A DNA stretch of 64,000 nt from Clostridia bacterium. Its GTDB lineage: Bacteria > Bacillota > Clostridia > RGIG7378. The position numbers and the translations under genes were made by a program. Under the pieces are notes generated by a model. The model saw nothing but the letters and a program-made list of their open reading frames with translations. It was not told the DNA's origin and made no database searches. The stretch lies in NCBI GenBank assembly GCA_045588325.1, contig JAZNEA010000057.1, positions 1,089 to 65,088 on the forward strand. Reading direction: 5' to 3'. Positions 19,102-38,874 of this stretch are shown in pieces. The first letter of the stretch is position 1, and each line of letters starts with the position of its first letter.

Positions 19102-19980
19102 ATGATCAGGAGTATGACAGGCTTTGGTCGTGGAGAGGCCAGCGACAGCACATATAGATTCAGAGTTGAGATTAAGTCTGTAAATAGCAGATACGCAGAT
19201 ATTACCATTAAGGGTCCCAGGATTTTTGCCCCATACGAGGACAGGATCAAGGCCACTATTACTAAGAAACTCCGCCGTGGCAAGATGGATGTCTTTGTGT
19301 ATTACGAGACACTTAGCGTTACAGAGGGTATGGTAGGAGTTAACCTTCCACTGGCAGCTGCATACAGAGACGCCATAGCCGATTTGGGACAGCAGCTGGG
19401 CATGGAGAACGACATCAGACTGTCCAACATTATTCGCATGCCAGACGTATTCGGATCAGGCAATATGGATGTGAACATAGACGACAATTGGCCCACATTG
19501 GAGCAGGCCGTCAATATGGCAGCAGATCAGCTGCAGAGCATCAGCGCCAGAGAGGGCACCTATTTGATCGAGACAATTCGCCAGGGCAAGGACAAGATTA
19601 TGGCCAAGGTGGATGAGATTGCAGAGCGCTCCCCCGTGGCCATAGAGGCCAACTTTGCAAAATACAGGGCGCGCATTGAGAAACTGTTGGGAGATACTGC
19701 TGTGGATGAGGCCAGACTCCTGCAGGAGGCAGCCATCATGTCTGAGAAGTACGATATTAACGAGGAAATCGTCAGACTGCGCAGCCACTTTGTGCGCATG
19801 GAGGAGATTATTGCCGAGGACGACATGATTGGCAAAAAGTTGGACTTTCTCATTCAGGAGATGAACAGAGAGACCAACACCATTGGCTCCAAGGCCAACG
19901 ACACAGAGATTTCTCGCAGAGTCGTATTCATGAAGAACGAGATTGAGAAGATCCGCGAACAGGTCCAGAACCTGGAGTAA
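19102..19980 (+). CDS. yicC: YicC-family stress-induced protein
   Basis: The N-terminal MIRSMTGFGRGE... motif and a C-terminal DUF1732-type region are present. Confidence 0.9.
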   Translation: MIRSMTGFGRGEASDSTYRFRVEIKSVNSRYADITIKGPRIFAPYEDRIKATITKKLRRGKMDVFVYYETLSVTEGMVGVNLPLAAAYRDAIADLGQQLGMENDIRLSNIIRMPDVFGSGNMDVNIDDNWPTLEQAVNMAADQLQSISAREGTYLIETIRQGKDKIMAKVDEIAERSPVAIEANFAKYRARIEKLLGDTAVDEARLLQEAAIMSEKYDINEEIVRLRSHFVRMEEIIAEDDMIGKKLDFLIQEMNRETNTIGSKANDTEISRRVVFMKNEIEKIREQVQNLE

Positions 19981-20021: not shown

Positions 20022-21422
20022 ATGATACCGTACGAAGGCAGGGAGCCATATATTTTCGTGAGTTATGCGCATAAGGATAGAGACATTGTCTTGTCCATAA
20101 TCGAGGCCATGTCTCAGCACGGATTTCGCATTTGGTATGATGCGGGCATAGAGGCCGGAACGGAGTGGCCTGAGTACATAGCTGAGCATCTGGAGAATGC
20201 AGCTGCGGTTATCGCGTTTCTGTCAGAATCCGCTTTGAGTTCTATTAACTGCCGTCAGGAGATTAATGAGGCCATCAATCAGAAAAAGGAGTTTCTGGCC
20301 ATTCACCTCCATGAGCTCACCATGACAGCAGGCATGCGTATGAGACTTAGCCTGATACAGGCAATGTTTATGTACCGACATACCAACATGGAGAGCTTTT
20401 ATAACTCTCTCTTCAATGCAAAGATTTTGAAACCATGCCTGAGTGAAATAGGACAAGTTGCTGAACAGCCAGTGACAGAGGTTGTACCTGAGACAAAAGC
20501 AGAGCCGGAGGCTTTGCCAGAATCCACCCCAGATGACTTTGTGATTAGTCAGGATGTGTTGATTTCATATAAGGGGAAAGGCGGTATTGTAGTCGTTCCT
20601 CAGGGAGTGAAAAGCCTTGGCTATGATATGATGGGGTATGGGTTGTGCGAAATAGCGACACCTGATTTTAAGAACGGATTCCAAAAAACCAATGAGATTA
20701 CAGAAGTTATTATTCCCGAAGGTGTAGAGGGTATTGGGTACAGAACCTTTGCTTATTGTGAGAATTTAGTCAGAGTTCACTTGCCAAAGAGCTTAAAATA
20801 CATAGATGACTTTGCTTTTTACAGATGTTTTGAGCTGCAGGAGGTAATTATCCCCCAGGATAGCCAGCTTGAGAGTATAGGCACAAGCGCCTTTGAGAAC
20901 TGTGCCAGTCTTACAAAGATGAGACTCCCAAAGAGAGTGACCTTTATTGGCAAGGATGCATTCAGGGCATGCAGGAGTTTGTCACATGTAAGTATCCCCT
21001 TGGATGCAAAGTTGGATAGGGTGCAGGAGGATACCTTTCACAACTGTTCGGGTCTTGAGGAGGTAACTCTTCCCAATAGCGTCGTAACTATTGAACCGAG
21101 AGCTTTTTATGGTTGCGAGTCCCTGTGGGACATAAACATACCTAATTCTTTGAAAGAGATCAAAGAGGCGGCATTCAAAAACTGCGAAAAGCTAGAATTA
21201 GTAGATTGTGGATGGCATAGTTCCCTGGAGAATATCGAAAAAGAGGCTTTCAGAGGATGCAGGTCATTGAAAACAATAAGTCTTTCGGATACCCTAAAGA
21301 CGATTGATGAGGATGCATTTGCAGAGTGTATGTCTTTGGCCAGTGCAGAGGTACCTAAGAAGACAAAAATGCCAGCGTTTAAGCAGGTATTCCCAAAGCA
21401 TACTGTTGTTAAGCGCACTTAG
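20022..21422 (+). CDS. Cytoplasmic TIR_2-domain protein fused to BspA-type leucine-rich repeats (TIR-LRR)
   Basis: The N-terminal ~130 aa (PYIFVSYAHKDRDIVLSIIEAMSQHGFRIWYDAGIEAGTEWPEYIAEHLENAAAVIAFLSESALSSINCRQEINEA) is a bacterial TIR_2 fold. There is no signal peptide. The C-terminal ~300 aa are LRR_5 repeats. A good RBS AATTGGAGGAAACATG precedes the start. Confidence 0.8.
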   Translation: MIPYEGREPYIFVSYAHKDRDIVLSIIEAMSQHGFRIWYDAGIEAGTEWPEYIAEHLENAAAVIAFLSESALSSINCRQEINEAINQKKEFLAIHLHELTMTAGMRMRLSLIQAMFMYRHTNMESFYNSLFNAKILKPCLSEIGQVAEQPVTEVVPETKAEPEALPESTPDDFVISQDVLISYKGKGGIVVVPQGVKSLGYDMMGYGLCEIATPDFKNGFQKTNEITEVIIPEGVEGIGYRTFAYCENLVRVHLPKSLKYIDDFAFYRCFELQEVIIPQDSQLESIGTSAFENCASLTKMRLPKRVTFIGKDAFRACRSLSHVSIPLDAKLDRVQEDTFHNCSGLEEVTLPNSVVTIEPRAFYGCESLWDINIPNSLKEIKEAAFKNCEKLELVDCGWHSSLENIEKEAFRGCRSLKTISLSDTLKTIDEDAFAECMSLASAEVPKKTKMPAFKQVFPKHTVVKRT

Positions 21423-21443: not shown

Positions 21444-21725
21444 ATGAAATTAGTTAACGTAGGATTTGGCAATATGGTTTCCAGCGATAAGCTTGTGGCG
21501 ATTGTCGGTCACCAGTCTGCCCCTGTCAAGAGAATGATTCAGGAGGCCAGAGATTCAGGTTACCTTATTGACGCCACCTATGGCCGCAAGACCAGGGCAG
21601 TTATCATCATGGACAGCGGGCATATTGTGCTCTCTGCTATTCAGCCAGAGACAGTGGCAGGCAGATTCGAGGATAACGGAGATGCACCAATTGGAGAAGA
21701 AGAGGAGGAAAACCGGGAAAATTAA
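21444..21725 (+). CDS. remA: Extracellular matrix/biofilm regulator RemA (DUF370)
   Basis: [21 protein letters not shown]...[20 protein letters not shown] is the highly conserved RemA/YlzA sequence. Confidence 0.85.
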
Positions 21726-21737: not shown

Positions 21738-21826
21738 TGTGACTTGAAAAAAAGCCCTATATGGTATATTATTAATCGGTTAAATTAGCATTTTTGGGTC
21801 CAGTACCCAGATTCGGAGGAAATATA

Positions 21827-22117
21827 ATGATTTTAAGCCCATCCATTACAGGATTGCTGGAGAAGGTAGACAGCAGATACACATTGGTAGTTCTCGCTGC
21901 TAAGAGAGCCAGAGAGATTAACAATTCCAGACTGGGACAGCCCGAGCCTGATGACGATGTCAAGGCTGTTACTATCGCTGTCAACGAGATCCTCGACGAC
22001 AAGATTACCTATACCAGAGAGCCCCACAAGGACACATGCTGCCAGGAGTGCGCAGAGGATGAGATTGAGGTAACAACGGAGACACCTGCTAGTTCAGAGG
22101 AGACTCCCGCAGAATAA
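21827..22117 (+). CDS. rpoZ: DNA-directed RNA polymerase subunit omega
   Basis: [31 protein letters not shown] matches RpoZ. It has an RBS GGAGGAAATATAATG and an acidic C-terminal tail. Confidence 0.85.
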
Positions 22118-23523: not shown

Positions 23524-23545
23524 TATATAAATGGAGGACACTAAT

Positions 23546-26463: not shown

Positions 26464-26479
26464 CGGAAACATGTTTCCG
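26464..26479 (+). promoter_or_regulatory. Perfect 16-bp palindrome CGGAAACATGTTTCCG just upstream of the XRE gene's RBS. It is a candidate operator.
   Basis: The palindrome is self-complementary and about 20 nt upstream of the TTG start. Confidence 0.4.
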
Positions 26480-26498
26480 GTTGAAGGAGGTTTAAAAA

Positions 26499-26834: not shown

Positions 26835-26870
26835 ATATATGCTAATAGCATATACCAAAATGTGATAGAA

Positions 26871-26897
26871 TAAGCATATGCATTACGCATATGCTTA
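26871..26897 (+). terminator. Inverted repeat TAAGCATATGC-ATTAC-GCATATGCTTA followed by a T-rich tract. It is a terminator and/or operator between the XRE gene and the 421-aa gene.
   Basis: 11-bp perfect arms followed by TTTGTT. Confidence 0.45.
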
Positions 26898-26924
26898 TTT
26901 GTTATATACGAGATTATATGTTGA

Positions 26925-28190: not shown

Positions 28191-28193
28191 TTT

Positions 28194-28367
28194 ATGTGTA
28201 AGAGCTTTATGGATATGGAAGACGGAGATTTTTGTTTTACTACATCTGACAATATGGCAATGGACTCTGAGGGGCATATGATGATGCGTATGGGTGATAA
28301 CATGGCTATGGATATGGACTCGGGTGAATTACATATGGTTTCTTCATGGGATGACGATGATGAATAG
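28194..28367 (+). CDS. Small Met/Asp-rich acidic peptide (57 aa) not present in the ORF track: MCKSFMDMEDGDFCFTTSDNMAMDSEGHMMMRMGDNMAMDMDSGELHMVSSWDDDDE
   Basis: An ATG sits 3 nt after the upstream stop. There is an unusual run of MxM/MMM motifs, and no signal peptide. Confidence 0.3.
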   Translation: MCKSFMDMEDGDFCFTTSDNMAMDSEGHMMMRMGDNMAMDMDSGELHMVSSWDDDDE

Positions 28368-28388
28368 GTGATTTCTTTTGAATTTTCG

Positions 28389-28444
28389 TTGACGCATACG
28401 GAATCCGTGTACATAATAAAGGTAGGTATATACGAAATCCGTAT
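28389..28444 (+). promoter_or_regulatory. Promoter (TTGACG, 17 nt, CATAAT) with two near-palindromic operator-like sites, TACGGAATCCGTGTA in the spacer and TACGAAATCCGTATA at about +15
   Basis: Two copies of a TACGNAATCCGTRTA dyad spaced about 33 bp apart, immediately upstream of the HTH gene at 28459. Confidence 0.5.
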
Positions 28445-28458
28445 ACAGGAGGTGCAAG

Positions 28459-28731
28459 ATGAAAGACTTAGAGTATATCGTAAACGGAATCATTGTTGAA
28501 GATGAGAATAAGGCAGAGCAAGATGAAGCCAGAAAGAAAAGAATGCTTGCATCTGCTTTTGTAATGGTAAGAAACAAGACCGGTATGAATCGCAAAGAGT
28601 TTGCTGCATGGCTAGGAATACCTTATCGAACAATGCAGGATTGGGAACTCGGCAACTCACAGGTCCCTGAATATGTTCTTAGACTCGTTGCCTATAAGGT
28701 AATGATTGAAAAGGAAAGGGGGAACATATAA
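28459..28731 (+). CDS. Small helix-turn-helix DNA-binding protein (90 aa)
   Basis: ...MNRKEFAAWLGIPYRTMQDWELGNSQ... is an HTH of the XRE/Cro type. It is translationally coupled (ATGA) to the downstream membrane protein. Confidence 0.6.
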   Translation: MKDLEYIVNGIIVEDENKAEQDEARKKRMLASAFVMVRNKTGMNRKEFAAWLGIPYRTMQDWELGNSQVPEYVLRLVAYKVMIEKERGNI

Positions 28732-29036
28732 TGAGAATACTAAAAGCGATTTTGATGGCACCAGTTAGAGTGATCGTATTTTTTATCCAGCTTGTATTAA
28801 CGTTGGGTGTAGCTATATTTGGCGCAGCCGGTGGCATTGTTACAAAGGCTGGAGAAATAGTAGGAGGCCTTTTGATTTTAGGATGCCTTCTTTGTGTTGC
28901 ATCCGGACAGATTTCTGGAGATATCTTTTTAAAGATGTTCCTTGGTGGAGTTGCATTCGGAGCAATCCCTGCTGCTGTTACAAAGCTTGGTGAAGAGGGA
29001 ATTTTTGCTATTAAAGGTATCATAGGAAGAATTTAG
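28731..29036 (+). CDS. Small glycine-zipper membrane protein (101 aa, 3 predicted TM helices)
   Basis: It has hydrophobic GxxxG-rich segments (GVAIFGAAGGIV; GGLLILGCLLCVASG; GGVAFGAIPAAV). Confidence 0.5.
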   Translation: MRILKAILMAPVRVIVFFIQLVLTLGVAIFGAAGGIVTKAGEIVGGLLILGCLLCVASGQISGDIFLKMFLGGVAFGAIPAAVTKLGEEGIFAIKGIIGRI

Positions 29037-29046
29037 AAGAAAAGAG

Positions 29047-29079
29047 AATGCTTAGAGGCCAGTTCCATCAATTTGGAAT
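29047..29079 (+). terminator. Rho-independent terminator after the membrane-protein gene (GGCCAGTTCCA...TTGGAATTGGCC + TTTTT)
   Basis: A ~12-bp stem with one mismatch, followed by a T-run. Confidence 0.55.
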
Positions 29080-29162
29080 TGGCCTTTTTCAATATTGTAC
29101 TTTATTGAAAAAAGAGTTTGACAATCTCCTTCAATATTGTATAATGGTCTTGACCAATAATG
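29080..29162 (+). promoter_or_regulatory. Sigma-A promoter (TTGACA, 16 nt, TATAAT) embedded in three related operator-like sites. Two are CAATATTGTA half-palindromes and one is a perfect 18-bp palindrome CAATAATGTACATTATTG.
   Basis: Near-consensus -35 and -10 hexamers. The repeated dyad overlaps the -10 and the +1, as expected for an autorepressed RHH/HTH operator. Confidence 0.55.
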
Positions 29163-29188
29163 TACATTATTGAAGGAGATTGAAACAG

Positions 29189-29557
29189 ATGCATAATTTA
29201 GCATTACATTTAACTGATGTTCAATATGGCGAATTATTTGTAAAATCGCAAATTGAGGGATTATCCATAGACGCTTATATAAAAAAGACACTTTTCGAAA
29301 CCGATCCGGGAATATTCACTCCTAAAGAGGCTATCAGAAGAGCTATGGAAAAATATGACATAGGGGAATATTTTGAGCTTAGGGATCTATATTCAGATGA
29401 AGAATGGTCAAGTATGGAGCGCGGAGAAAGAATTGCTTTTGGACGAAACTTTTTTTCTTTTACCAGTGTCATTGAACCAGGAAAAGTAAAACTTGTTCAA
29501 GATACGGGAAATAATGGTAGAAGAGCAAAGTACGAATTATTAAAGAAGAAAATGTAG
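29189..29557 (+). CDS. Hypothetical protein with an N-terminal ribbon-helix-helix (CopG/Arc/ParD-like) DNA-binding domain and a ~70-aa C-terminal extension
   Basis: NLALHLTDVQYGELFVKSQIEGLSIDAYIKKTLF fits the RHH beta-alpha-alpha pattern. An AAGGAG RBS lies upstream. Confidence 0.45.
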   Translation: MHNLALHLTDVQYGELFVKSQIEGLSIDAYIKKTLFETDPGIFTPKEAIRRAMEKYDIGEYFELRDLYSDEEWSSMERGERIAFGRNFFSFTSVIEPGKVKLVQDTGNNGRRAKYELLKKKM

Positions 29558-29587
29558 AGAGGAGCCTTTGTTAGGAGGGGATGCTTC

Positions 29588-30025
29588 ATGACAACAAGAG
29601 AATTGAAAGAAAAGCTTAAAAACTCTCAGGAGACATATCCAGTATCAAGTGCATATGATGCAACTCATGGTCAAAGGAAAGGTGTTCATTGGAACAATCA
29701 AAAGGAACACCTTTTGCCGTGGCTTGATGCACAGGAGACTCATGGTTATGGTGGGTTTACTAGATTAAATATCAATACGGATGCCGAAAGAATGTACAAT
29801 CATCTGTCGTGTCCAGAATGTCTTTTATGGTTATGCGAAGCTTCTGGAGTGCCTTATGATGTTGTTAATGCGGCAGCTGAAAAAGCAAAGCTTCATGAAA
29901 AAGTAGTTTCCAGAGCAGCTTCAATTCGTAGAGATATACCGTGGAGTGAGGTAGAGAATAGGCTTAATATACCAATAGAGAGAACAAACACTTGCTTGGC
30001 TTTGCAAACACGTCACAATGTGTAA
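29588..30025 (+). CDS. Hypothetical protein (145 aa), with no recognisable domain
   Basis: The ORF has a GGAGGGGATGCTTCATG RBS context. It has island-type AT-rich codon usage. Confidence 0.45.
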   Translation: MTTRELKEKLKNSQETYPVSSAYDATHGQRKGVHWNNQKEHLLPWLDAQETHGYGGFTRLNINTDAERMYNHLSCPECLLWLCEASGVPYDVVNAAAEKAKLHEKVVSRAASIRRDIPWSEVENRLNIPIERTNTCLALQTRHNV

Positions 30026-30125
30026 TCGTATGTTTCTGGAAAAGCGGTAGCATTTCTTCCTTTTGCCCTATTTGGGAGTTTGATCGAGAAAAAAAGGTTG
30101 GGAAATCAGTTATAACGAACAACGC

Positions 30126-30518
30126 ATGAAGAAGAATCCAATTATTCAGAACCTCCATTTTTCGGACAAAACAGACGAATTTAAGGAAATACTTTTGGAT
30201 ATAGGAAAGTTTGCAACAGCAATAGAACAGCCCTATTTTGCAGATGTTTTTCGTAATGCATACGAGTCTTTGTGCGGTTCAGAAACTATCGAAGACGACA
30301 ATATTCCCAAACAACTCCCCAACGAGTTCAAATCTATATATTATGCGGTAGATAAAGCCGATGTGTTTGGTGCTATGGGGTCTTGGAACGATTCGCCGCC
30401 TTATTATGCGCACCAAAAAGGATTGGATAAGGAATATAATGAGTTATCAAACGGTCTGCTTGTTCAAATACGCTATCATTTGATGTATGTTACCAATGAG
30501 TGTTGGAAAAGAGATTGA
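30126..30518 (+). CDS. Hypothetical protein (130 aa), possibly an orphan immunity-type protein
   Basis: A small soluble protein in an array of unrelated small ORFs next to an RHS-CT cassette. Confidence 0.4.
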   Translation: MKKNPIIQNLHFSDKTDEFKEILLDIGKFATAIEQPYFADVFRNAYESLCGSETIEDDNIPKQLPNEFKSIYYAVDKADVFGAMGSWNDSPPYYAHQKGLDKEYNELSNGLLVQIRYHLMYVTNECWKRD

Positions 30519-30705
30519 GTACCATCTCCATCTTTGCGTGCAACAACTATTAAGAGCAAATAATAGGACAAGCTTAATAGACAAATTAAATCTCCCTACT
30601 GAGAAAGCGGTGGGGAGATTTTGCTTTTGTTGAATTATCAGAGTTCTTATATTATGCTTATGGTGTAGAGCAGATAAAGGTGTGTTCCTGAGTTGGAGTA
30701 GATAT

Positions 30706-31191
30706 ATGATCGTTTCATTTGATTTGGATGATACCCTTTTTGTTTCACCAGACAGGGCAAAAACAGAAAAAGAGTTAGTCTTTCCTTTGAATAAGATCTA
30801 TAAGGAGAGAATGAGACAGGGGACAAGAGACCTGTTCCAGCAGCTACATGCAAGAAACATTGACACATGGATATATACGACGTCCTTTCGAACAGAAAAG
30901 TATATTCGGAGATTGTTTAAGCACTATGGCATAAAAATCACGAATGTTGTTAATGGGGAAAAACATTTAAAAGAGGTCCAGGGAATCAAAAAGGATCCCA
31001 TGCCGTCGAAATATCCTTCGAGATATCGTATTGATTTGCATATAGATGACGATATTTCCGTCGCACAAAATGGCAAATTGTATGGCTTTAAGGTGCTAAT
31101 TATTAAGGAAGAAGATGATGAATGGGCATCTAGTATTCTGGCAACCGTGGACGGAATGTTGCAACGAACCAAGCAAGGAAAATCGGAATAG
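30706..31191 (+). CDS. HAD-superfamily hydrolase-like protein
   Basis: The N-terminal motif I is SFDLDDTLF (DxDxT), with downstream ...IDDDISV... (motif IV-like). Confidence 0.55.
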   Translation: MIVSFDLDDTLFVSPDRAKTEKELVFPLNKIYKERMRQGTRDLFQQLHARNIDTWIYTTSFRTEKYIRRLFKHYGIKITNVVNGEKHLKEVQGIKKDPMPSKYPSRYRIDLHIDDDISVAQNGKLYGFKVLIIKEEDDEWASSILATVDGMLQRTKQGKSE

Positions 31192-31251
31192 CTAAGTATA
31201 TTGTTATCTTTTTGTAAAATGATATATTTTTTATGTAAGGAGGATTGTTTT

Positions 31252-31911
31252 ATGAAAAAGTTATTATGTTTGTTTTTGGCAATTGTTATGCTGTTGGGCC
31301 TTTGCGGCTGCTTTGATGGTGGCACAGATGATATTCGTGGCGAGATTAACGCCGAGCCTACCCCTAACGAGCCGGAGTTCTCACTTGGCGCCACGTCTGG
31401 CAACTCTTATACCAATGATTTCCTGGGACTAAGTTGTGTTCTGCCTGCGGGATGGGTTTTTTATACTGACGAGCAGATTATGGAACTCAATAACATAGCA
31501 AAGGATATGATTGACGACGAACAGGTTTCCGACCTCCTCAAAAATGCAACCATTGTTTATGATATGACCGCTTCTCATCCAGATGGTAGTTCTATAAACA
31601 TAAATATGGAAAAGCTTAACGCTGTTCAGCAGCTGACCCTCAATTTGAAAAGTATGCTGGAGGGACAGATTAGCACGATTGTCTCTACTTATCAGAACAT
31701 GGGATTTACCGATGTCAATGTGGAATACCAAAAGATAATGGTCGATGGCAAGGAGTTTGATGGATTAAAACTTACTGCAAAGATTCAGGGTATTGCATAT
31801 TACGGAGAGCTCCTTGCATTTAAGAGGGGTAGCTATGTTGCGAATGTTTCAATTGGATCTATTCAGACAGACAAGAGTGAGATTATTTGGAGTTGCTTTG
31901 AGGTTGAATAG
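31252..31911 (+). CDS. Lipoprotein of unknown function
   Basis: The signal peptide has a lipobox (MKKLLCLFLAIVMLLGLCGC). An AAGGAGG RBS lies upstream. Confidence 0.6.
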   Translation: MKKLLCLFLAIVMLLGLCGCFDGGTDDIRGEINAEPTPNEPEFSLGATSGNSYTNDFLGLSCVLPAGWVFYTDEQIMELNNIAKDMIDDEQVSDLLKNATIVYDMTASHPDGSSININMEKLNAVQQLTLNLKSMLEGQISTIVSTYQNMGFTDVNVEYQKIMVDGKEFDGLKLTAKIQGIAYYGELLAFKRGSYVANVSIGSIQTDKSEIIWSCFEVE

Positions 31912-32052
31912 AGTGCCATGGCAAAATTAGGACGTATTCTTAAAGGATCTTCTAATTCATGACGTTTTCCAGGCCCCGCTCTTTGGTTTGCACAAATCAA
32001 AGAGCGGGGTCAAATATATGGAGGAAAATATGAAAATATATTCTATTAAGAA

Positions 32053-32110
32053 ATGGACTGCGCGCAATAATGTAACACCCTCTGTGCTACCATATGCATA
32101 GAGTAGGAAC
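32053..32110 (+). repeat. Direct repeat copy 1 (~57 nt, imperfect): ...TGGACTGCGCGCAATAATGTAACACCCTCTGTGCTACCATATGCATAGAGTAGGAAC
   Basis: It matches 34083-34141 (core 35 nt, 31/35 identical, plus an upstream arm resembling the 3' end of the immunity-like gene). Confidence 0.65.
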
Positions 32111-32387
32111 TATTGGATCCGTGGTATAAACGCACTATAGTTAACCAGGCCAGGTCAGGGTTAAAATTCCTGCCCTGGCCTTTGTTTTCTAATTAGGATT
32201 CTAGCTTTATAACTATAGCCGTATTAATTACGGATATACGTAATCCACCTCGTTTTCTTTTTGATTAGAAGGCGCCTTGCCTAAAATGGCACGAATTTGT
32301 TTCTCTAGGTAACGACGACCTTGTTGACGAATAGGAATAGATGTTCCTTTGGCTGTATTTCCGTTTGTTCCATCAGTAGCAGATTAA

Positions 32388-33380
32388 ACTGTATCCTATG
32401 GTTACACAGATAGCAGCTGGGCAGATTTGCTTACATCTTACAAGGGAAAAACCATAACCTATGATGCAATAGGCAATCCCCTAGACGATGGTACATGGGA
32501 CTATGTATGGGAGAGAGGCAGACAGCTTAAGTCCATGGAGGGAGCATCTGTAAAGTGGACATACACCTACGATGCAAATGGTCAGAGATTGACTAAGACC
32601 AACAATACTCTCACATATCACTATATCTATGATGGCATCCAGTTAAAGTATCTAAAGGTAACACAGAAATCCGGACAGAGTACAAACACGGTATGTGAGA
32701 TGTACTTTGAGTATGGACAGACAGGTCTCATGGCCATACAATATATTAGTAGCAGCTTGACAGACACATACTATGTAGTAACCAATGCTCAGGGAGACGT
32801 TGTAGCCTTGGTGGATGGTAATGGCACGGTGGTTGTAAACTACACCTATGACGCATGGGGTAAGCTACAGGCCATGACAGGCTCTAAAGCCAGCACCGTA
32901 GGCAAGTATAACCCCATCCGATATAGGGGATATGTCTACGACACAGAGACACAGCTGTACTACCTGAACACAAGGTACTATAACCCAGACATGGGTAGGT
33001 TCATTAATGCGGATTCCTTACTTAGCCGAGGATCTGTTCTTGGAAGCAATATGTTTGCCTATTGTCTTAACAATCCGGCAAACATGGCAGATACCACAGG
33101 TGAACTTCCATTTTTCCTTGTGACTGCTGCTATAGGTGCAGTTATTGGCGCTATCATTGGTGGTGTAGTTGCTGCAAAGAGTGGCGGAAATGTTTGGGCT
33201 GGCATAGGGATTGGCGCTGCTGCCGGAGGACTAGCAGGAGCGGGTTTGGGCGCAGCGGCTGGAGTGTTGTTGGCTGGCAGTGCTACGGCTAGCACAGCAG
33301 CAGTAGTGTCTGGTGCAGGAATGGTTGCAATGGCAGCAAGTACTGGTGGTGTGGTCGCAAGCTTCTGCTGCATTTTGTAA
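32388..33380 (+). pseudogene. Orphan, 5'-truncated RHS/YD-repeat protein C-terminal fragment with a glycine-zipper hydrophobic toxin tip
   Basis: YD repeats are visible (YDANGQRLTK, YDAWGKL, YRGYVYDTETQLYYLNTRYYNPDMGRFINADSL). The RHS core-end motif is ...NPANMADTTGE. A 95-aa Gly/Ala-rich hydrophobic C-terminal tip follows. The only in-frame stop is 3 nt upstream of the start, there is no ATG or RBS, and no RHS N-terminal part anywhere upstream. Confidence 0.7.
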
Positions 33381-33515
33381 TCAAGCAAGTGGTGTAGTAA
33401 ATGCATTTATTTCAAACAGTCTCTATCGTGGAGTAGATAGTGTCTTTTGGAAGGTCGAAATGACTGCGCTCTTAAACAACCCTAGAGTTACAGAAATAAT
33501 CATTCATATTTTCGA

Positions 33516-34106
33516 ATGAGTTTGGAGGAATGTGTGAAACGTTATTTTTATATCACAATTCACTTCTCTCCTGATTATGAAGGGACAGTGTTTTCAAAAT
33601 ACCATGATGATCTTTATATAAATACCGAAACAGGAGAGATATATCGCAAAAGATTGTTGTATGATTTTGGTTGGGGGCAAGAGAATGGATTTGAATTAAC
33701 ACCGCAGTTGTCATTCGAGGAGTTGATTCAATTGGTTGAGAGTCCAATGGTATTACCTCGAAAGAAGTTTTGGAAAAAATACACCAAAGAGGAAATTCAA
33801 CAAGCTGATATTTGGCGTAGCAACTTATATGGTGCAGTTGCGGTGATAATGCAAGATTATGTAAAAGATCTTATTGAGTTCCTATCGGCCAGGGTTGAGA
33901 CAGATTACTTTTCAAATCCAAGTATACGAGATAATTTCAAATGTTTCTCTTTTGACTCGGAAAAAACAAGAGCGGAGGGTAAGATTCCAGGTGGAGTTCT
34001 TACACAATCATATGAAGACATTTTTAAGAAATACCCTCAATGGGAAAGAATTTCTTCGAAGATTATTAACCAAGTATACGTACTGGACTGCGGCGAAAAT
34101 AAGTAG
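33516..34106 (+). CDS. Putative cognate immunity protein of the RHS C-terminal toxin (196 aa, unknown family)
   Basis: It lies immediately downstream of the toxin tip on the same strand and is a soluble protein. This position is conserved for polymorphic-toxin immunity genes. Confidence 0.45.
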   Translation: MSLEECVKRYFYITIHFSPDYEGTVFSKYHDDLYINTETGEIYRKRLLYDFGWGQENGFELTPQLSFEELIQLVESPMVLPRKKFWKKYTKEEIQQADIWRSNLYGAVAVIMQDYVKDLIEFLSARVETDYFSNPSIRDNFKCFSFDSEKTRAEGKIPGGVLTQSYEDIFKKYPQWERISSKIINQVYVLDCGENK

Positions 34107-34141
34107 CACCCTCTGTGATACCATATGGGTAGAGTAGGAGC
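34083..34141 (+). repeat. Direct repeat copy 2, covering the last ~24 nt of the immunity-like gene plus 35 nt downstream
   Basis: See copy 1. Confidence 0.65.
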
Positions 34142-34524
34142 GGGCAAGGCAAACAATAATAGTAAATACGTGATATGTAGTTGGCTAGGAGCATACCGAA
34201 GAAAACAGTGTGGCACAAAGAAAGAAGAAAGCATGGCGCGTTCCAATACATAGAGCTATTCTATAAAAGGAAATGTTCCCAACATGTAGGGTATAGGCAT
34301 TTATCGAACAAATATCTAAAGTTTAACCTGAGGTATGGTAGTTGCAAATATGTCTATGTAGGTTGTTATTCGAGTCATCAAATTAATATTATAAAATCTA
34401 CGCTAAATAAGGATTAGGTTGTAGGTAATGCTGGACAAAAGCAAAATATGGATGTTTTGGTTTAGTAGTTACTAATGTATCTTTTTTGATAGTGTCGTTT
34501 GGGAAGCAGCACAGGAGACTAACA

Positions 34525-34980
34525 ATGGAATATATAATAATTTTATTTATCCAAATTTTGATCATGTCTTTAATCCTTTTCGGCAGGAAAGATAATGCGC
34601 GTTTGATAAAAAAACTAGATAGTACTTTTTTAATAGTCATGTGGATTTTTCAGGGATTATGTATTATAGGTAATGTCGTTTTATTGTTTGTTGCTAAAGA
34701 TATGATGATGTATGTTCTTGAATTCCATGTTTTTATAGCAGGTATCATACTGATGATATTTGATCCTATTGGAAAAAGACTACACTTTCAAAGGTTAACG
34801 AATATTTTAATAGAAGATAATCTGATTTCATTAGATACGGGATCTATTAGACGATATATAGTAGAAAAATACGGCTTGATATATTCTACAAAAGAGATTG
34901 ATAAATACATAACTAAAATTATAGAGAATCAAAAGAAAATAGATCTAAAACATCAGAAAAAGGGAAAAAACGATAGATAA
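34525..34980 (+). CDS. Small polytopic membrane protein (about 150 aa)
   Basis: It has four hydrophobic helices (IIILFIQILIMSLILF; FLIVMWIFQGLCIIGNVVLLFV; FHVFIAGIILMIF). Start taken at MEYIII.... Confidence 0.4.
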   Translation: MEYIIILFIQILIMSLILFGRKDNARLIKKLDSTFLIVMWIFQGLCIIGNVVLLFVAKDMMMYVLEFHVFIAGIILMIFDPIGKRLHFQRLTNILIEDNLISLDTGSIRRYIVEKYGLIYSTKEIDKYITKIIENQKKIDLKHQKKGKNDR

Positions 34981-35099
34981 TTAATTCGCTAGTATTATTC
35001 AGCATTTGCGATTTCCCAGCGGGCATATTGCTTCAGTTGCCTTATTTCTGCATTTTGATGTAAACTAAACCTACAAATACTTATTCGGAGACAAAATGT

Positions 35100-36083
35100 A
35101 TGTTAGTTGTTTTAGTTGGCGGCACGTTAAAGGTGGCTAAGGACAGCCGCAAGTATTTTCAAGATAATGGGTTCCAGATAATCCAGAAGTACAACTATTG
35201 GCCCCAGGATACCATAACCGAGCATTATGATAAGTTTGAAACATGCACAGAAGAGGAGATCAACCTGTGTGAGTTCCAGTACCCTGTCCACAACGGAATA
35301 ACAGGATTCCGAAAGGCGCAGATTATTGACGCTGTCAGAGGTAGGACCAATGCCCTCATGACAGGGTCTCCGGACAATCTCGACTTTTTTAGACAGTTAA
35401 AGGCAGCTTTCAACAAGAATATCAGGTTGGTTTACCTGTACATCGACAAGACAAGCCTTGAAAGCATGACTCGCAAATTCATCGAGAGTGAGGAGGATAT
35501 CCAGCGCAGACTCAAAAAGGGTGGCGAGCTCCGCAAGATGTATATTAGTGAAAAGGCTCTGTTTGACAGGATTGTTGTGTATGAAGAGGACGGCGAACTG
35601 GGCATGGAGGCCTTGCACGTACAATACGACAGCATAATAGAGGAGGCAAAGAAAAATAACAACATTGTGGATCTGCCATATACGGGCTCGGACGGTTACA
35701 TATTTGTAAGTTATTCCCACGCGGATGATAATGAAGTTATGTCTGTGTTATCTGAATTACAAAAAGAAGGCTATAGAATCTGGTATGACGAGGGAATATA
35801 CGGTGGAGCAAACTGGAAAATCATGCTTGGAGAGAGGCTAGAGGGATGCACCGACTTTTTATTATTCTCGTCAAAGAGCTCTACCAAATCGAGAAATGTG
35901 TTTGCAGAGGTTGGTATGGCCCTGGATTTGCCGGAGGCTCATCCCATAGTTATCCGATTGGACGATGCAACCTTCCCCTCTGGGTATGAAATGTACTTAA
36001 AGGAGTATCAGAACATTCTTGCTAGCAAGGATAATCTGATGGATAAGCTGAAAAAAGCTTTGTCACCGGAGACAAAGCAATAG
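35100..36083 (+). CDS. TIR_2-domain protein with a ~190-aa N-terminal domain of unknown function, a paralogue of the TIR domain at 20022
   Basis: The C-terminal GYIFVSYSHADDNEVMSVLSELQKEGYRIWYDEGIYGGANWKIMLGERLEGCTDFLLFSSKSSTKSRNVFAEVGMA aligns motif-for-motif with the 20022 TIR (YIFVSY[AS]H.D...RIWYD.GI..G..W). The N-terminal MLVVLVGGTLKVAKDSRK... is weakly kinase/P-loop-like but not a canonical Walker A. Confidence 0.75.
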   Translation: MLVVLVGGTLKVAKDSRKYFQDNGFQIIQKYNYWPQDTITEHYDKFETCTEEEINLCEFQYPVHNGITGFRKAQIIDAVRGRTNALMTGSPDNLDFFRQLKAAFNKNIRLVYLYIDKTSLESMTRKFIESEEDIQRRLKKGGELRKMYISEKALFDRIVVYEEDGELGMEALHVQYDSIIEEAKKNNNIVDLPYTGSDGYIFVSYSHADDNEVMSVLSELQKEGYRIWYDEGIYGGANWKIMLGERLEGCTDFLLFSSKSSTKSRNVFAEVGMALDLPEAHPIVIRLDDATFPSGYEMYLKEYQNILASKDNLMDKLKKALSPETKQ

Positions 36084-36109
36084 GGATTTAGCCAACGATA
36101 TACGATTAT

Positions 36110-36145
36110 ACAGGCAGGGCGCGCTTTGTGTCCCTGCCTATTTCT
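36110..36145. terminator. Bidirectional hairpin (AGGCAGGG...CCCTGCCT) between the convergent TIR and DedA genes
   Basis: An 8-bp GC-rich stem with T-rich flanks on both strands. Confidence 0.45.
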
Positions 36146-36872
36146 CTGTAGATTCACCCTTGGTCATTTTGCCATAAATAACGTACCCAATGAGGCTGAC
36201 GATGGCAATGCCAGCAAAGATGTATATGGCCACCATGAGCCTGGATTCGCCCAACTCGTTGCCTGCAATTGTGGAAGAGATGATCGAAGGAATGCGGGCA
36301 AAGGTCGTGAGCAGCAGGTACTGCCATATTTTCATGTCGGTGAGGCCAACCACGTAGGACAGCATGTCCTTGGGCGTGCCGGGGATCAGGAACAGCAAAA
36401 ATGTCAGGGAGTTGCGCTGAACAGGATTGTTCAGAATGGGCAGGGAGTTAAGGTCCGTGTCTGGGAAAAATGTGTAGAATAACTTTAGTCCAAACTTGCG
36501 GGTCAGCAGTATGGCAGTGACACTTCCCAGGATTGCACCGATAAGCACATAAATAGTGCCCCATAGACCACCAAATACGTATCCGGCTGCTACCTCCACA
36601 AGTTCGCCTGGGATAAACGCTACCACAACCTGCAGGGCAGTTACCAGGATCATAATCAGGACGCCCAGCCAGTAGTTCTGCTCAACCAAAGCGCGTATTG
36701 GCCCAGCATCCGTAAAATACTGGCGCATGAGAATTACGCCTAAAACTGTAGCACCCACAAATAGAGCAGAGATAATGCTAAGCACTGTGGCCGCTTTGAT
36801 TTTGGCCCCTCTGGAAACGCGGGGCGTGGTGGATCCATTATGCTCATGTGTCTGATAATCGTTATTGTCCAT
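36138..36872 (-). CDS. TVP38/TMEM64 (DedA/SNARE-associated) family membrane protein
   Basis: It is a polytopic membrane protein carrying the family motif ...FIPGELVEVAAGYVFG.... An RBS GGGAGGA lies upstream on the minus strand. Confidence 0.8.
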   Translation of the reverse strand: MDNNDYQTHEHNGSTTPRVSRGAKIKAATVLSIISALFVGATVLGVILMRQYFTDAGPIRALVEQNYWLGVLIMILVTALQVVVAFIPGELVEVAAGYVFGGLWGTIYVLIGAILGSVTAILLTRKFGLKLFYTFFPDTDLNSLPILNNPVQRNSLTFLLFLIPGTPKDMLSYVVGLTDMKIWQYLLLTTFARIPSIISSTIAGNELGESRLMVAIYIFAGIAIVSLIGYVIYGKMTKGESTEK

Positions 36873-37011
36873 ATTATCCTCCCTAGGTTACATGCAGTAT
36901 AACACAAATCTCCTGTTATATAATCATTGGCCAGCTTTTATGGAAAAATTATGTTAACTGTTGTATACTTAACGGAAATAGTTCCTAAAGATAGAGAGGA
37001 CGGGAGGAGAG

Positions 37012-38874
37012 ATGAATCTGCGACGCTACTTGGTATGTTTGATGCTGCTGGTTATAACCATCTCAGTAGTAACAGGCTGCAATATCAGGCTGGTGTTCAA
37101 TCAGACAGAGGATTTGCCGACTCATAGTCCTGTTCCATCTGCTAGTCCGTCGTCTACGCCTACATCTACACATACGACGACGCATTCCCCTACAAATAGC
37201 CCTAGTTTTACTCCCGTGGCAACAGCCACACCTACAGCCACACCAACGGCCACGCCCACGGTTACACCTACAGCCACGCCCACGGAGACACCTACAGCCA
37301 CACCTACGGCTACTCCAACTCCGACACCCACCCCAACCCCTAAGCCAACACCAACCCCTAAGCCTACGCCCACGCCCACTCCACCCAGTGAGCCAATGCC
37401 TGACTCCTGGTGGTACGTGATTACAACTACAGCCAAGCTGCGTGCTGACTCCAGATCCTCTGCTGAGGTGCTGGAGGTTATCGACAATGGCCAGCTGATT
37501 AAGGTAATCTCCCAGCGAAACGGATTCGTTAAGGTGAAGTATAACGGCCGGGAGGGATATGTGTTGAGATCCAGTATCCAGCCAGTGGAGAACAAGGAGG
37601 ATTGCCCTCTGCCTAAGCTATGGCAGGCCAACTGCAACGAATACATAACATTGCGCAAAACTCCAGGAGGCTACGGCATCGACACGATTCCGGTAGGAGG
37701 AGTGATGGAGCTTAAGGAATGGCACGGCATATACGCCAAGGTAAAGTACGGCAACCTGACAGGCTATGTGCTGACCAGCCATATCAAACCTGCAGGAGAC
37801 AAATATTTTAAGAATCTGCTTAAGATTGTAGAGATTACCAGCCAGTATTCCTACTCCCAGATGTTGGAGGATATACAGGCGTTACAGAAAAAATACCCAG
37901 GTCTGATTACTCTGGACTCAATAGGCACCAGCGAACAGGGCAGGGATATTCCCGTCATGCGCATTGGCAACCCGGATGCGGAGCGCCACATAATGATCCA
38001 CGGTTCAATCCATGCCAGAGAGCATATGACAACCTGGCTCCTGATGGCCATGGTGGAGTACCAGCTGTCCCATGATACGGACTTTCTGGCAGATGTCTGC
38101 ATCCACATTGTGCCAATGGTCAATCCCGATGGAGTTATGCTGTCACAGACGGCCTCCTTTGCCCAGGCCCAGCTCAAGATATACAATGACGACCTGCAGC
38201 ACAAGAATACCTGGTACGGTAAGGCCCAGTATGCCAGCAAGTGGAAGGCCAACGCATTAGGAGTAGACCTTAACCGCAATTTCCCTGCAGGGTGGGAGGA
38301 TATTCCATCCAGGGGATTGCCCTCATCAGAAAAATTCAACGGAACTGAGCCGTTGGACGCAGCGGAGTCTCGCGCTCTGGCTGAATATACGCTAAAATAC
38401 ACGTGGGTGGCCACCATTAGCTACCACTCCTACGGCAGTTTGATTTATCACAACTTTGGCGAGAGGCAGGACATCAATCGCCAGTCCACATCCCTGGCCG
38501 AGGCGGTCAAGGCTGTCACAGGATACCTGTTGTCGGATGGAGACGAGGTCGAGGGTGGAGGCTACAGAGATTGGGCCATCGACGCCCTTGGCATCCCATC
38601 CATAACCGTGGAGGTAGGGTGCGCAGAACCGCCCCTGTTGGACAGAGAGTTATATTGCCTGTTTGCCAGGAATTATGACGTAATGCGTGCAGTGGCAGAG
38701 TGGGCTATGGAACAGGAGGTTCCACCAGAGAGGACAGAGGGTGACCCAGGACAGGAGACTCCTCCGGAACCAACAGAGGATATAGGTCAGGAGGCACCCC
38801 CGGAGCAAACAGAGGGACCTGAGCAAACAGAAGGAACAGAAGGAACAGAAGGAACGAATGGAGACATTGAATAA
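37012..38874 (+). CDS. Lipoprotein zinc carboxypeptidase of the M14 family (gamma-D-Glu-DAP peptidase-like) with a Pro/Thr linker, two SH3b domains and an acidic C-terminal repeat
   Basis: It has a lipobox (VTGC), two SH3b-like repeats (...[12 protein letters not shown]...; ...[17 protein letters not shown]...), and the M14 zinc motif [11 protein letters not shown] with a downstream ...SYHSYGS... motif. Confidence 0.8.
37198..37392 (+). repeat. Pro/Thr-rich tandem codon repeat (ACNCCNACN) encoding a [22 protein letters not shown]...[18 protein letters not shown] linker
   Basis: Visible tandem repeat, near-identical in unit sequence to the tracts at 9889-10030 and 40200-40330. Confidence 0.8.

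Follow-up and report, generated by a model that had tools for sequence, protein, structure and literature searches.

The open reading frame at 35100..36083 (+ strand) of the window, by which we mean the whole 64,000-nucleotide stretch of DNA analyzed, encodes from an ATG start a 327-residue protein in which a diverged and predicted kinase-dead guanylate-kinase (GK)-like domain is joined through a PYxG linker to a TIR domain. We propose, with moderate confidence, that this protein is a stand-alone, single-polypeptide TIR NADase of the abortive-infection type, in which the GK-derived pseudokinase would act as the sensor. What is new here is which domain serves as the partner; the pairing of a sensor with a TIR domain is itself a well-known design in bacterial immunity. 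A fusion of a GK or pseudokinase domain with TIR is not described in Pfam, in PADLOC, or in the literature searched, from which many subscription papers lay out of reach, and the assignment gives a name to a blank domain in proteins annotated only as "TIR domain-containing protein."

The N-terminal guanylate-kinase-like domain

Residues 1 to 186 (35100..35657, +) are predicted to adopt the guanylate kinase fold, with secondary structure elements in the same order as in Gmk (β1-α1-β2-[lobe β/β]-α3-β-α4-β-α5-α6(LID)-β-α7). The AF2 model of the full-length protein has a pLDDT of 87.7 and a pTM of 0.83, and a separate model, made for the homologous domain of protein P0139, returned guanylate kinases for all of its top 50 Foldseek matches, with E values down to 6e-9. 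The original prediction had left this region unassigned, as a domain of ~190 residues with a kinase- or P-loop-like start but no Walker A motif. The structure search that it called for yields an NMP-kinase (guanylate kinase) fold with dead motifs and shortens the domain to ~186 residues.

Direct sequence methods were blank for this domain, and the link to guanylate kinases surfaced solely through structure and intermediate sequences. Pfam, NCBIfam, and PADLOC gave no match to the N-terminal domain, PF00625 was matched in none of 50 family members with the limit relaxed to E ≤ 1, searches of PDB sequences by phmmer and hmmsearch retrieved TIR matches only, and hhalign of the family profile against the single E. 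coli Gmk sequence gave a probability of 0.2%. Through intermediates, the hhalign chain runs from the family to a set of intact GK-like kinases (99.2%) and from these to E. coli Gmk (97.3%). A profile search (A2) of a library of 1.84 billion proteins likewise matched proteins scoring above the Pfam Guanylate_kin threshold (P0163, E = 2.8e-14; P0184, E = 2e-7). On these sequences and models we assign the domain to a diverged GK fold, whose homology to PF00625 is only transitive, by way of intermediates that pass the threshold; descent from an active guanylate-kinase-like nucleotide kinase is the best explanation. The intact GK-like kinases, which are the closest relatives of the domain, form a separate clade of small kinases, and at one locus (L093) their gene overlaps that of a NUDIX hydrolase in an operon. 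No bona fide gmk was found in the window or in the 92 loci searched for one in order to build a local Gmk profile.

The motifs of an active kinase are degenerate across the family, for which residue frequencies were taken from 50 aligned members. The remnant of the Walker A motif or P-loop, GGTLKVAKDSR (residues 7 to 17; 35118..35150, +), follows the family pattern G-x-T-[LV]-x-[VM]-[GA]-x-x-S-R and holds no conserved lysine in either the alignment with E. coli Gmk (A3) or the hhalign alignments. Depending on the alignment, the equivalent of the Walker lysine is position 14, a lysine in 25 of the 50 members, or position 13, a glycine or alanine; the pattern GxxxxGK[ST] has no match anywhere in the 327 residues. 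In the AF2 model, the helix begins at residue 10 and the loop is just three residues long. The former GMP-binding motif S/K-x-T-T-R-x-P-R now reads KYNYWPQD (residues 30 to 37; 35187..35210, +), with TTR changed to YNY and the second arginine to aspartate. Both arginines of the TTR..R site are gone family-wide, with K30 invariant, and at this position the intact GK-like kinases carry KKxTTRxPR. The sole canonical GK active-site residue that is kept is the LID-helix arginine, R137 (codon at 35508..35510, +), present in 49 of the 50 members, with equivalents in the bridging kinases and in the Gmk of E. coli and P. aeruginosa.

With its degenerate Walker A motif and its replaced TTR..R site, the N-terminal domain is predicted to be kinase-dead, and phosphotransfer is unlikely because there is no Walker lysine or Ser/Thr. 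The conserved polar residues T9, S16, R17, K30, R80, S90, D116, and R137 would, on alignment to Gmk, cluster in the cleft.

The module is not confined to the single-TIR arrangement. It also stands at the head of 700-residue double-TIR proteins and of 490- to 520-residue proteins in which a YRNxAAH (Rx4H) motif is invariant. A C terminus of the type found in P0139 could be HEPN-like, an assignment that is unproven: its Pfam HEPN matches are subthreshold (0.047 and 0.057), a profile search of the PDB returned nothing for it, and the AF2 model of P0139 (pLDDT 62 overall) is poor in its C-terminal half, with Foldseek output dominated by the GK half. The gene for a 733-residue form has CinA fragments and a further TIR gene as neighbors.

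A pseudoenzyme fused to a putative immune effector and kept without its catalytic motifs recalls the integrated decoys carried by plant NLRs. By that model, the dead GK-like domain would mimic a host or phage NMP kinase that is bound or modified by a phage factor, and this factor, on engaging the decoy, would trigger TIR assembly. The sharing of the module among several putative effector domains fits this idea, and guanylate kinase does matter to at least some phages, as gmk missense mutations confer resistance, at a step after adsorption, to a myovirus of S. aureus (reviewed in PMC6532042). However, the domain is not recognizably similar to housekeeping Gmk, as the 0.2% hhalign probability attests, its closest relatives belong to a separate kinase clade, and the surfaces that a mimic would need, the P-loop and TTR..R, are exactly those that have been altered. 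We consider a decoy unlikely.

The TIR domain and its relation to TIR-LRR proteins

A linker of 13 residues (187 to 199; 35658..35696, +), in which P193-Y194-x-G196 is invariant, leads into the TIR domain (residues 200 to 327; 35697..36080, +). The C-terminal domain has the flavodoxin-like TIR fold, with βA YIFVSYSH.D, R226-x-W228-x-D230, G236..W239, βC FLLFSS, and αC S264..V267..E270. The original prediction of a real TIR_2 domain with a glutamate at the catalytic position is borne out: Pfam TIR_2 (PF13676) matches residues 201 to 289 with E = 7.4e-14 and 52.7 bits, against a cutoff of 28, and is matched in all 50 aligned family members.

The glutamate that had been described as lying near the end of the domain is intact at the catalytic position and can now be specified as E270 (GAG codon, 35907..35909, +), which is a glutamate in 50 of 50 members; a second one, E297, is nearly invariant (47 of 50). 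The AF2 model places E270 within helix 265-276, which follows strand 252-257. Its counterpart in the TIR-LRR protein encoded at 20022 in the window is E80 (BLASTP alignment), and it also aligns with the glutamates of Cat1 (SDWCWDELEQA, the SxWCxxE motif) and of TIR-APAZ (8qlo, VLKEI), which we take to be the catalytic residues of those enzymes. The closest solved structures by sequence profile are NADases (TIR-APAZ, Cat1, AbTir, and SARM1), and to our knowledge nearly all characterized bacterial TIR domains with such a glutamate are NADases. A bona fide kinase joined to a degenerate TIR domain, which the original prediction had named as the outcome that would count against it, does not describe this protein, where the kinase motifs are dead and the TIR glutamate is intact. 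A TIR domain that serves as a nonenzymatic assembly scaffold, engaged in protein-protein signaling only, is highly improbable given the invariance of the catalytic-position glutamate and the NADases that dominate the nearest structures.

The protein encoded at 20022..21422 combines TIR_2 with LRR_5. Its TIR domain and that of the 327-residue protein share 42 of 130 identities (32%, E = 1e-21, BLASTP), in an alignment that reproduces the motif-by-motif correspondence noted from the sequence (YIFVSY[SA]H.D ... RIWYD.GI.G..W). The PYxG motif precedes this TIR domain as well (MIPYEG...), and TIR-LRR proteins are the best nonfamily matches of the 327-residue query. The domain order differs, with TIR N-terminal in the TIR-LRR protein and C-terminal in GK-TIR. 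The two had been called paralogues. They do belong to the same subfamily, but the 20022 TIR resembles the copy in the window (32%) no more than it does the family members from many species (30 to 39%), so that the two are not a recent duplication within this genome.

A modular immune-receptor family, as the original prediction framed it, finds some support in the adjacency of GK-TIR, TIR-only, and TIR-LRR_5 genes in L096/L097 and in the presence of the GK-like module on other C-terminal domains. However, unlike a hypervariable sensor of the LRR type, the GK-like domain changes at the same slow pace as the TIR domain (see below).

Genomic setting, family distribution, and neighborhoods

The TIR gene is preceded by a GGAGA ribosome-binding site (35087-35091) 8 nt 5' of its start and ends with a stop codon at 36081-36083 (+). 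It is the final gene of a low-GC stretch at ~26-35 kb (32 to 43% GC versus ~50% in the flanks) and converges with a VTT/DedA-family gene at 36138..36872 (−), so that the GC profile and gene order agree with its initial placement as the last gene of an AT-rich island, at the edge and convergent with DedA. The 54-nt gap between the two genes harbors a GC-rich hairpin (36112..36139, unstranded; RNA fold of 36084-36150, MFE −20.2 kcal/mol, z = −2.2) that is a plausible bidirectional terminator by this folding, and that a consensus terminator scan did not call. A consensus promoter scan near the TIR gene found promoter-like sites at chance level.

The presumed promoter and 5'UTR (34987..35099, +) is 92% identical to the region 5' of paralogue 1 in close relatives that carry a tandem pair of genes, encoding 330 and 327 residues (L001-L003, with a contig-cut copy in L004). 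By blastn, window positions 34987-35147 match L001 1307-1468, in the region of paralogue 1, at 92%, and positions 35083-38714 match L001 2446-6058, where the gene body is that of paralogue 2, at 79%. An upstream region of the paralogue 1 type joined to a body of the paralogue 2 type points to a recombination or deletion junction. Since close relatives have two tandem paralogues and the window has one, the single copy might be an incomplete system. Tandem pairing as a general rule was rejected, as it was found in the closest relatives of the window only.

The family is small and patchily distributed. About 80 homologs in Clostridia of the gut and rumen share the full-length architecture (327 to 354 residues). 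Among 185,579 species genomes scanned, GK-TIR was placed in about 24 species, nearly all of them gut or rumen Clostridia, plus one member of the Eggerthellaceae. Both domains are under purifying selection: relative to the orthologue in L001/L007, dN/dS is 0.077 for the whole gene, 0.053 for the GK-like part, where selection is strong, and 0.092 for the TIR domain. Their rates of divergence are correlated (mean pairwise identity 46% for the GK-like domain and 51% for TIR, r = 0.86). The GK-like domain is not hypervariable and evolves slowly, like the TIR domain, and this speaks against a sensor that directly recognizes phage proteins that evolve fast. No family member was found in any of the three collections of phage, plasmid, and viral-contig sequences searched.

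Eight other genomic contexts of the family were sampled; as raw counts, five are defense or conflict islands, one is rich in TIR and NAD genes, and two are housekeeping regions. Individual contexts include type III CRISPR RAMPs with AAA_21 and Uma2 (L087); a 1395-residue DUF4062 protein (L089), from a family reported as TIR-like NADases in defense (bioRxiv 10.64898/2026.05.01.722283); AAA_15/21 with a reverse transcriptase (L090); AbiEii, TIR, TIR-LRR, Card1_endonuc, and NADAR-DarT1 (L096); and Card1_endonuc, an ATPase_2/AAA_22 ATPase, VWA, and PP2C (L098). In the window's own island no recognized defense system was found; the co-occurrence with known defense genes that had been suggested as a check was seen in the five sampled contexts counted as defense or conflict islands.

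The two plain housekeeping regions, L005 (with PnuC/NMN_transporter five genes upstream) and L100, where the gene sits among transporters and metabolic genes, fit a protein that is not immune at all, either a regulated NAD+-consuming enzyme in the cell's own physiology (dormancy, stress, or coupling of NAD and nucleotide pools) or a toxin-like selfish gene that gathers in variable regions. The slow, correlated evolution of both domains under strong purifying selection and the lack of family members in the phage, plasmid, and viral-contig collections are in keeping with such a role. Against it stand the patchy distribution (about 24 of 185,579 species), the location in a low-GC variable island, the variation in copy number between close relatives, and the predominance of defense and conflict islands among the sampled neighborhoods; we regard a nonimmune role as rather improbable.

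No partner gene is conserved across the family. SIR2, SLOG, and Macro domains are absent from the 14 island ORFs, ThsA is not among the best 25 families listed for the 38 other window genes (a list that reaches ~1e-16), and across 25 family loci there is no conserved neighbor and no ThsA beside any member. The earlier statement that no ThsA-like partner is visible thus holds for the island ORFs and the 25 loci, and for the other window genes as regards strong matches. The one ORF that recurs, a lipoprotein-like protein of ~235 residues, does so in a few related lineages and was rejected as a conserved partner.

These results bear on a second immune scheme, in which the TIR domain would, like ThsB, make a nucleotide of the cADPR type or one derived from ADPR, and the GK-like domain would either bind or modify the product through a noncanonical site or gate its production, with the receptor or effector elsewhere in the genome. 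ThsB-type matches do occur, if weakly: PADLOC recognizes the TIR part only, with ThsB1 at E = 1.2e-6, and Pfam ThsB_TIR matches 43 of the 50 members at relaxed E. Basic and polar residues, R137 included, survive at former active-site positions, and the operon of intact GK-like kinases with a NUDIX hydrolase and the 733-residue form beside CinA fragments and a TIR gene count in its favor as well. On the other side, the island yielded no ThsA, SIR2, SLOG, or Macro gene, the other window genes gave no strong ThsA match, and the 25 loci have no neighbor in common; ThsB_TIR (PF08937) scores 16 bits in the 327-residue protein, below the 21.2 cutoff; and phosphotransfer by the degenerate domain is unlikely. 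We consider a signal-producing pair of this kind improbable.

Proposed mechanism and comparison with known systems

Returning to the single-polypeptide NADase that we favor, the loss of kinase motifs combined with strong conservation makes the GK-like domain most likely a regulatory or sensor module. The C-terminal TIR domain would be a NAD+ glycohydrolase or cyclase using E270, active only upon self-association into composite active sites, as in other TIR NADases. In uninfected cells the GK-like domain would keep the TIR domain off, and its autoinhibitory packing on the TIR domain is a guess prompted by the pTM of 0.83. A conserved trigger might then bind the remnant nucleotide cleft and allow TIR assembly and NAD+ depletion; a nucleotide-like small molecule is the most likely trigger and a conserved protein a less likely one. 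The NADase activity, the anti-phage role, the sensor role of the GK-like domain, and the nature of the trigger are all inferred from sequence and models. The proposal is easy to test, as the protein has only 327 residues, comes from one gene, and offers obvious positions for point mutation (E270; R17, K30, R80, and R137).

More tentatively, and with considerable doubt, GK-derived pseudokinases may represent a type of immune sensor new to bacteria, one that reads the state of the pool of guanine or other nucleotides (for instance an alarmone, or a nucleotide that a phage makes or depletes) or acts as a nucleotide-kinase decoy, and that is interchangeable among single-TIR, double-TIR, and Rx4H/HEPN-like effectors. 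If true, this would parallel, independently, the path from guanylate kinase to the MAGUK binding domain in eukaryotes. If the domain senses a nucleotide, surveillance of the nucleotide pool would be coupled directly to NAD+ depletion in one small protein.

Among the known systems that come close is SpbK (YddK of B. subtilis ICEBs1), an abortive-infection protein likewise encoded by one gene, with its sensor at the N terminus and its TIR domain at the C terminus, whose NADase is switched on by trigger-induced TIR self-association (PMC12847820). GK-TIR similarly unites a predicted sensor and a TIR domain in a single chain that needs no obligate partner, an architecture conserved in ~79 homologs, with no conserved neighbor at 25 loci. 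The N-terminal domain of SpbK is ~100 residues long and binds the SPbeta portal protein YonE, and no kinase fold is described for it; that of GK-TIR is a predicted 186-residue guanylate kinase derivative.

Thoeris ThsB offers a TIR_2/ThsB-like TIR domain with a catalytic glutamate, to which GK-TIR is alike down to its weak PADLOC ThsB matches, but for GK-TIR no ThsA was found in the island or beside family members, nor a strong ThsA match in the rest of the window, ThsB_TIR stays below threshold, and there is an additional N-terminal GK-like domain. The TIR-LRR_5 proteins of gut Clostridia share PYxG-x3-YIFVSY[SA]H.D, RIWYD.GI, and the glutamate in αC, and differ in having an N-terminal TIR domain and a BspA-type LRR partner.

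On the kinase side, the N-terminal domain departs from Gmk (PF00625, EC 2.7.4.8) in lacking Walker A, TTR..R, and any Pfam match, and as part of a TIR fusion it is not the housekeeping enzyme. In having a GK fold without a P-loop it resembles the noncatalytic GK domains of eukaryotic MAGUK and CaV-beta proteins. Unlike these, it appears to have arisen independently in bacteria from another GK-like clade, carries no SH3 or PDZ domain, and is fused to an enzymatic effector. The absence of SH3 and PDZ, together with homology to the bacterial GK-like clade, makes the likeness to MAGUK proteins one of analogy and not of membership.

The GK-TIR gene and its island

The open reading frame at 35100..36083 (+) begins with an ATG 8 nt downstream of a GGAGA ribosome-binding site and encodes a protein of 327 amino acids, GK-TIR, in which a guanylate kinase (GK)-like domain (residues 1-186) precedes a TIR domain. 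As originally predicted, the latter is recognized as TIR_2 (Pfam; residues 201-289, E = 7.4e-14; score 52.7 bits, cut-off 28). The window's second TIR protein, TIR-LRR (20022..21422), combines TIR_2 with LRR_5 (Pfam). The two TIR regions share 32% identity over 130 residues (E = 1e-21), reproducing the motifs by which they had been called paralogs. That term has to be weakened to a relationship at subfamily level: the TIR of TIR-LRR is no closer to the window's GK-TIR (32%) than to family members in other species (up to 39%).

GK-TIR closes a low-GC stretch at ~26-35 kb (32-43% GC versus ~50% in the flanks) and converges with a VTT/DedA gene (36138..36872; Pfam), in agreement with its predicted place at an island edge. 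The 54-nt gap between the two genes holds a GC-rich hairpin (36112-36139; MFE -20.2 kcal/mol, z = -2.2). The island encodes an HTH_3 regulator, a DUF1413 protein, a weak HAD-like protein, an orphan RHS fragment, and several ORFs without assignment; Pfam and PADLOC recognized in it neither a defense system nor any SIR2, SLOG, or Macro gene, which bears out the reported lack of a ThsA partner. Outside the island, the window consists of housekeeping genes. PADLOC gave a strong dCTPase match there (E = 1.6e-41) and many GajB-type matches to a UvrD/PcrA-like helicase, all outside 26-36 kb and probably housekeeping homologs rather than defense genes.

The RHS fragment (32427..33380), the C-terminal part of an RHS-repeat protein, carries a glycine-zipper tail with a weak Rick_17kDa_Anti match. 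Behind it come two ORFs without family, one of 196 aa (33516..34106) and a membrane-like one of 164 aa (34486..34980), the second in the window's lowest-GC kilobase (31.6%). Together, the elements at 32427-34980 might be the remnant of a toxin-tip and immunity unit. A lipoprotein-like ORF of ~235 aa, without a Pfam family, lies directly 5' of GK-TIR in two Oscillospiraceae relatives (L005, 7194-7898; L010, 9195-9899); in the window (31201-31911) it lies 3 kb 5' of GK-TIR, with the RHS segment inserted between. In the window (23531-36083) and in a 53%-identical relative (L089, 1-9002) alike, a variable segment begins just after pyruvate phosphate dikinase (PPDK) and has GK-TIR at its other end. 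The content between PPDK and GK-TIR differs; this segment may be an integration hot spot.

Origin and conservation of the two domains

Searching 5.8 billion clustered proteins turned up ~79 full-length homologs of 327-354 aa with the same two-part layout, whose existing annotation goes no further than TIR. The architecture is absent from Pfam, from PADLOC as a system, and from the literature searched. In a family alignment of 50 sequences, no member has a Pfam match in its N-terminal half, and NCBIfam and PDB sequence searches with this half were also blank.

Foldseek matches the N-terminal domain to the guanylate kinase fold; CASK, ZO-1, PALS1, and CaV-beta, whose GK-like domains are non-catalytic, come next, ahead of other P-loop kinases. 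When the homologous domain was modeled independently in the metagenomic protein P0139, which has another architecture, all 50 of the top 50 matches were guanylate kinases (E down to 6e-9). A direct sequence link to the housekeeping guanylate kinase Gmk is invisible, hhalign of the N-terminal alignment against E. coli Gmk (identical to PDB 2an9_A) giving 0.2%. Run as a profile exhaustively through 1.84 billion representatives, this alignment yielded 167 proteins, with proteins of ~195-205 aa among the weaker yet significant matches, as well as P0163, a tandem version (E = 2.8e-14). By Pfam Guanylate_kin (cut-off 25.2 bits), these GK-like proteins pass at 31.6, 32.1, and 27.1 bits or, for P0202, lie at the limit with 25.1. 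They have intact GxSGxGK[ST] and KKxTTRxPR motifs and share with the TIR-fused family a C[DE][FY]xY...YGF block and an LFD strand. They bridge the gap by hhalign, to the family at 99.2% (E = 3.5e-19, 156 columns) and to E. coli Gmk at 97.3% (E = 2.7e-11, 172 columns). From this two-link profile-profile chain and the fold matches, we therefore conclude that the N-terminal domain is a diverged member of the guanylate kinase superfamily, from a clade of small, active-looking GK-like kinases.

Such intact kinases are encoded in an operon of overlapping genes (L093, 3000-4796, and also L094) comprising a 212-aa ORF without assignment, the 195-aa kinase, and a 195-aa NUDIX protein; its neighbors are a HepT/MNT toxin-antitoxin pair and a nuclease of the DUF1016/YhcG type. 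This operon is a putative nucleotide-modifying module.

The P-loop-like start without a canonical Walker A motif, noted in the original prediction, corresponds to a degenerate Walker A position in this diverged fold, G7-x-T9-[LV]-x-[VM]-[GA]13-x14, where the equivalent of the Walker lysine falls, depending on the alignment, at position 13 (Gly/Ala) or 14 (Lys in 25 of 50, otherwise R/L/S/Y/E/H). In the model, helix α1 begins at residue 10, and a three-residue loop occupies the P-loop position; in the family alignments, Y-N-Y..[DE] replaces the GMP-binding TTR..R. Features of GK that are kept include K30, G69 (the glycine of the YG[TF] turn), the FD strand, and the LID-helix arginine R137, found in 49 of 50 members and unchanged in the alignment that extends to E. 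coli Gmk, alongside a family-specific polar set (T9, S16, R17, Q74, D77, R80, S90, and D116). Judged from sequence, the TIR-fused domain is predicted to be kinase-dead yet maintained.

Across the 50 sequences, the N-terminal half is conserved as strongly as the TIR half, with invariant M1, L2, K30, G69, F70, G81, and F96 and near-invariant G7, T9, S16, R17, C57, Y61, Q74, D77, R80, S90, Y114, D116, R137, F155, and Q175. Mean pairwise identity is 46% for the GK-like half versus 51% for the TIR half, the two evolving at similar and correlated rates (r = 0.86), and dN/dS against a 91%-identical ortholog is 0.077 for the whole gene, 0.053 for the GK-like part, and 0.092 for the TIR part. The GK-like domain thus appears to be a selected pseudoenzyme, not a decaying one, and to behave unlike a hypervariable recognition surface. 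We consider it rather unlikely that the domain serves as an integrated decoy of a nucleotide kinase.

The TIR half carries a glutamate, E270, in 50 of 50 members. In Cat1 and TIR-APAZ, its counterpart is the glutamate of a SxWCxxE-type motif, the catalytic residue of these enzymes; it also aligns with E80 of TIR-LRR, and the model places it on the helix that follows strand βC. F202, S204, Y205, D209, R226, W228, D230, G236, W239, and S264 are likewise invariant. Instead of the degenerate TIR-like part that the original prediction had allowed for, the domain therefore looks intact at its signature positions, and a role for it as a scaffold only seems highly improbable.

The TIR-LRR gene (20022..21422) is wedged into a housekeeping cluster, between yicC (19102..19980) and remA (21444..21725); the ORF 3' of remA (21794..22117) is presumably rpoZ. 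In Firmicutes, gmk normally lies between remA and rpoZ. Only 68 nt separate the two here, and no gmk was found anywhere in the window. This absence is noteworthy given the putatively dead guanylate kinase domain in the window's other TIR protein; their occurrence in one window may be coincidence. A second BspA-type LRR_5 protein (11064-13184), without TIR, is 27-34% identical to the LRR part of TIR-LRR.

Distribution, neighborhoods, and module reuse

In a scan of 185,579 species, one genome each, full-length GK-TIR occurs in ~24, nearly all gut or rumen Clostridia (Oscillospiraceae, Lachnospiraceae, Faecousia, Ruminococcoides intestinale, Dorea ammoniilytica, Fusicatenibacter, Faecalibacterium, and Blautia) plus one Eggerthellaceae; the nearest match, at 91%, comes from a Clostridia MAG of sheep colon. 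GK-TIR is absent from 50,697 phage records, apart from one weak TIR-only match, and from PLSDB plasmids, as is the GK-like domain from IMG/VR contigs.

Two tandem GK-TIR paralogs (330 and 327 aa, 63% identical) adjoin the same DedA gene in the window's closest relatives (L001-L003, with a contig-cut copy in L004), and the window has a single copy. Its positions 34987-35147, 113 nt upstream plus the first 48 nt of the gene, match paralog 1 of L001 at 92%, and the body of the gene matches paralog 2 (1307-3445 of L001). Since the duplication is old, the simplest reading would be loss of one unit through recombination between the similar 5' ends.

Neighbor clustering over 25 loci revealed no conserved partner gene. 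GK-TIR could be a signal-generating enzyme whose receptor is unlinked, which we regard as quite unlikely; single-protein action is the reading we favor below. Individual neighborhoods include type III CRISPR RAMPs, S_4TM, Uma2, and AAA_21 (L087); a 1395-aa DUF4062 protein at L089, in a segment directly 3' of PPDK, as in the window; and AAA_15/21 with a reverse transcriptase (L090). DUF4062 has been described as a family of TIR-like NADases in 2026 preprints (bioRxiv 10.64898/2026.05.01.722283). Within a conjugative-element (T4SS-bearing) region, L096 and L097 carry a TIR gene cluster (5814-15020 in L096) in the order AbiEii, GK-TIR (339 aa), TIR-only (262 aa), a 45-aa ORF, TIR-LRR_5 (461 aa), a 943-aa Card1_endonuc protein, and NADAR-DarT1. 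L098 combines Card1_endonuc, VWA, and PP2C with an ATPase whose matches to ATPase_2/AAA_22 are weak or faint. At L095 (6503-10517), two fragments of CinA (NMN-deamidase family) lie ahead of a 733-aa GK-like/TIR/spacer/TIR protein, and after it come a TIR_2 gene of 371 aa and a Metallophos gene; the neighbors in L005 and L100 are ordinary housekeeping genes. We consider a non-immune, NAD+-regulating role for GK-TIR unlikely.

The GK-like module also heads ~700-735-aa proteins with two TIR_2 domains, a 485-aa form with a weak TIR match, and metagenomic proteins of ~490-520 aa (P0139, P0140, P0142, and P0148; 491-521 aa). In the last, the C terminus is all-alpha; its YRN[AP]AAH (Rx4H) motif is invariant, and it also contains an ATSALENELK helix. 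Because its HEPN-clan Pfam matches are sub-threshold (HEPN_Swt1 and HEPN_RiboL-PSP; 0.047 and 0.057) and the structure model is poor there, a pseudokinase-HEPN RNase architecture is a possible lead rather than a result.

Proposed mechanism

The reading that we favor, with about even confidence, is that GK-TIR is an autonomous, single-protein abortive-infection TIR NADase. The GK-derived pseudokinase would be its regulatory or sensor part, and self-association of the TIR domains would switch on NADase activity. Because the sensor domain evolves slowly, the trigger is probably a conserved ligand, and the basic and polar residues that survive at former active-site positions in the alignments suggest that it may be nucleotide-like. 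Activation by TIR self-association has been demonstrated for SpbK, TIR-STING, and TIR-SAVED (PMC12847820), and the same scheme is proposed here for GK-TIR.
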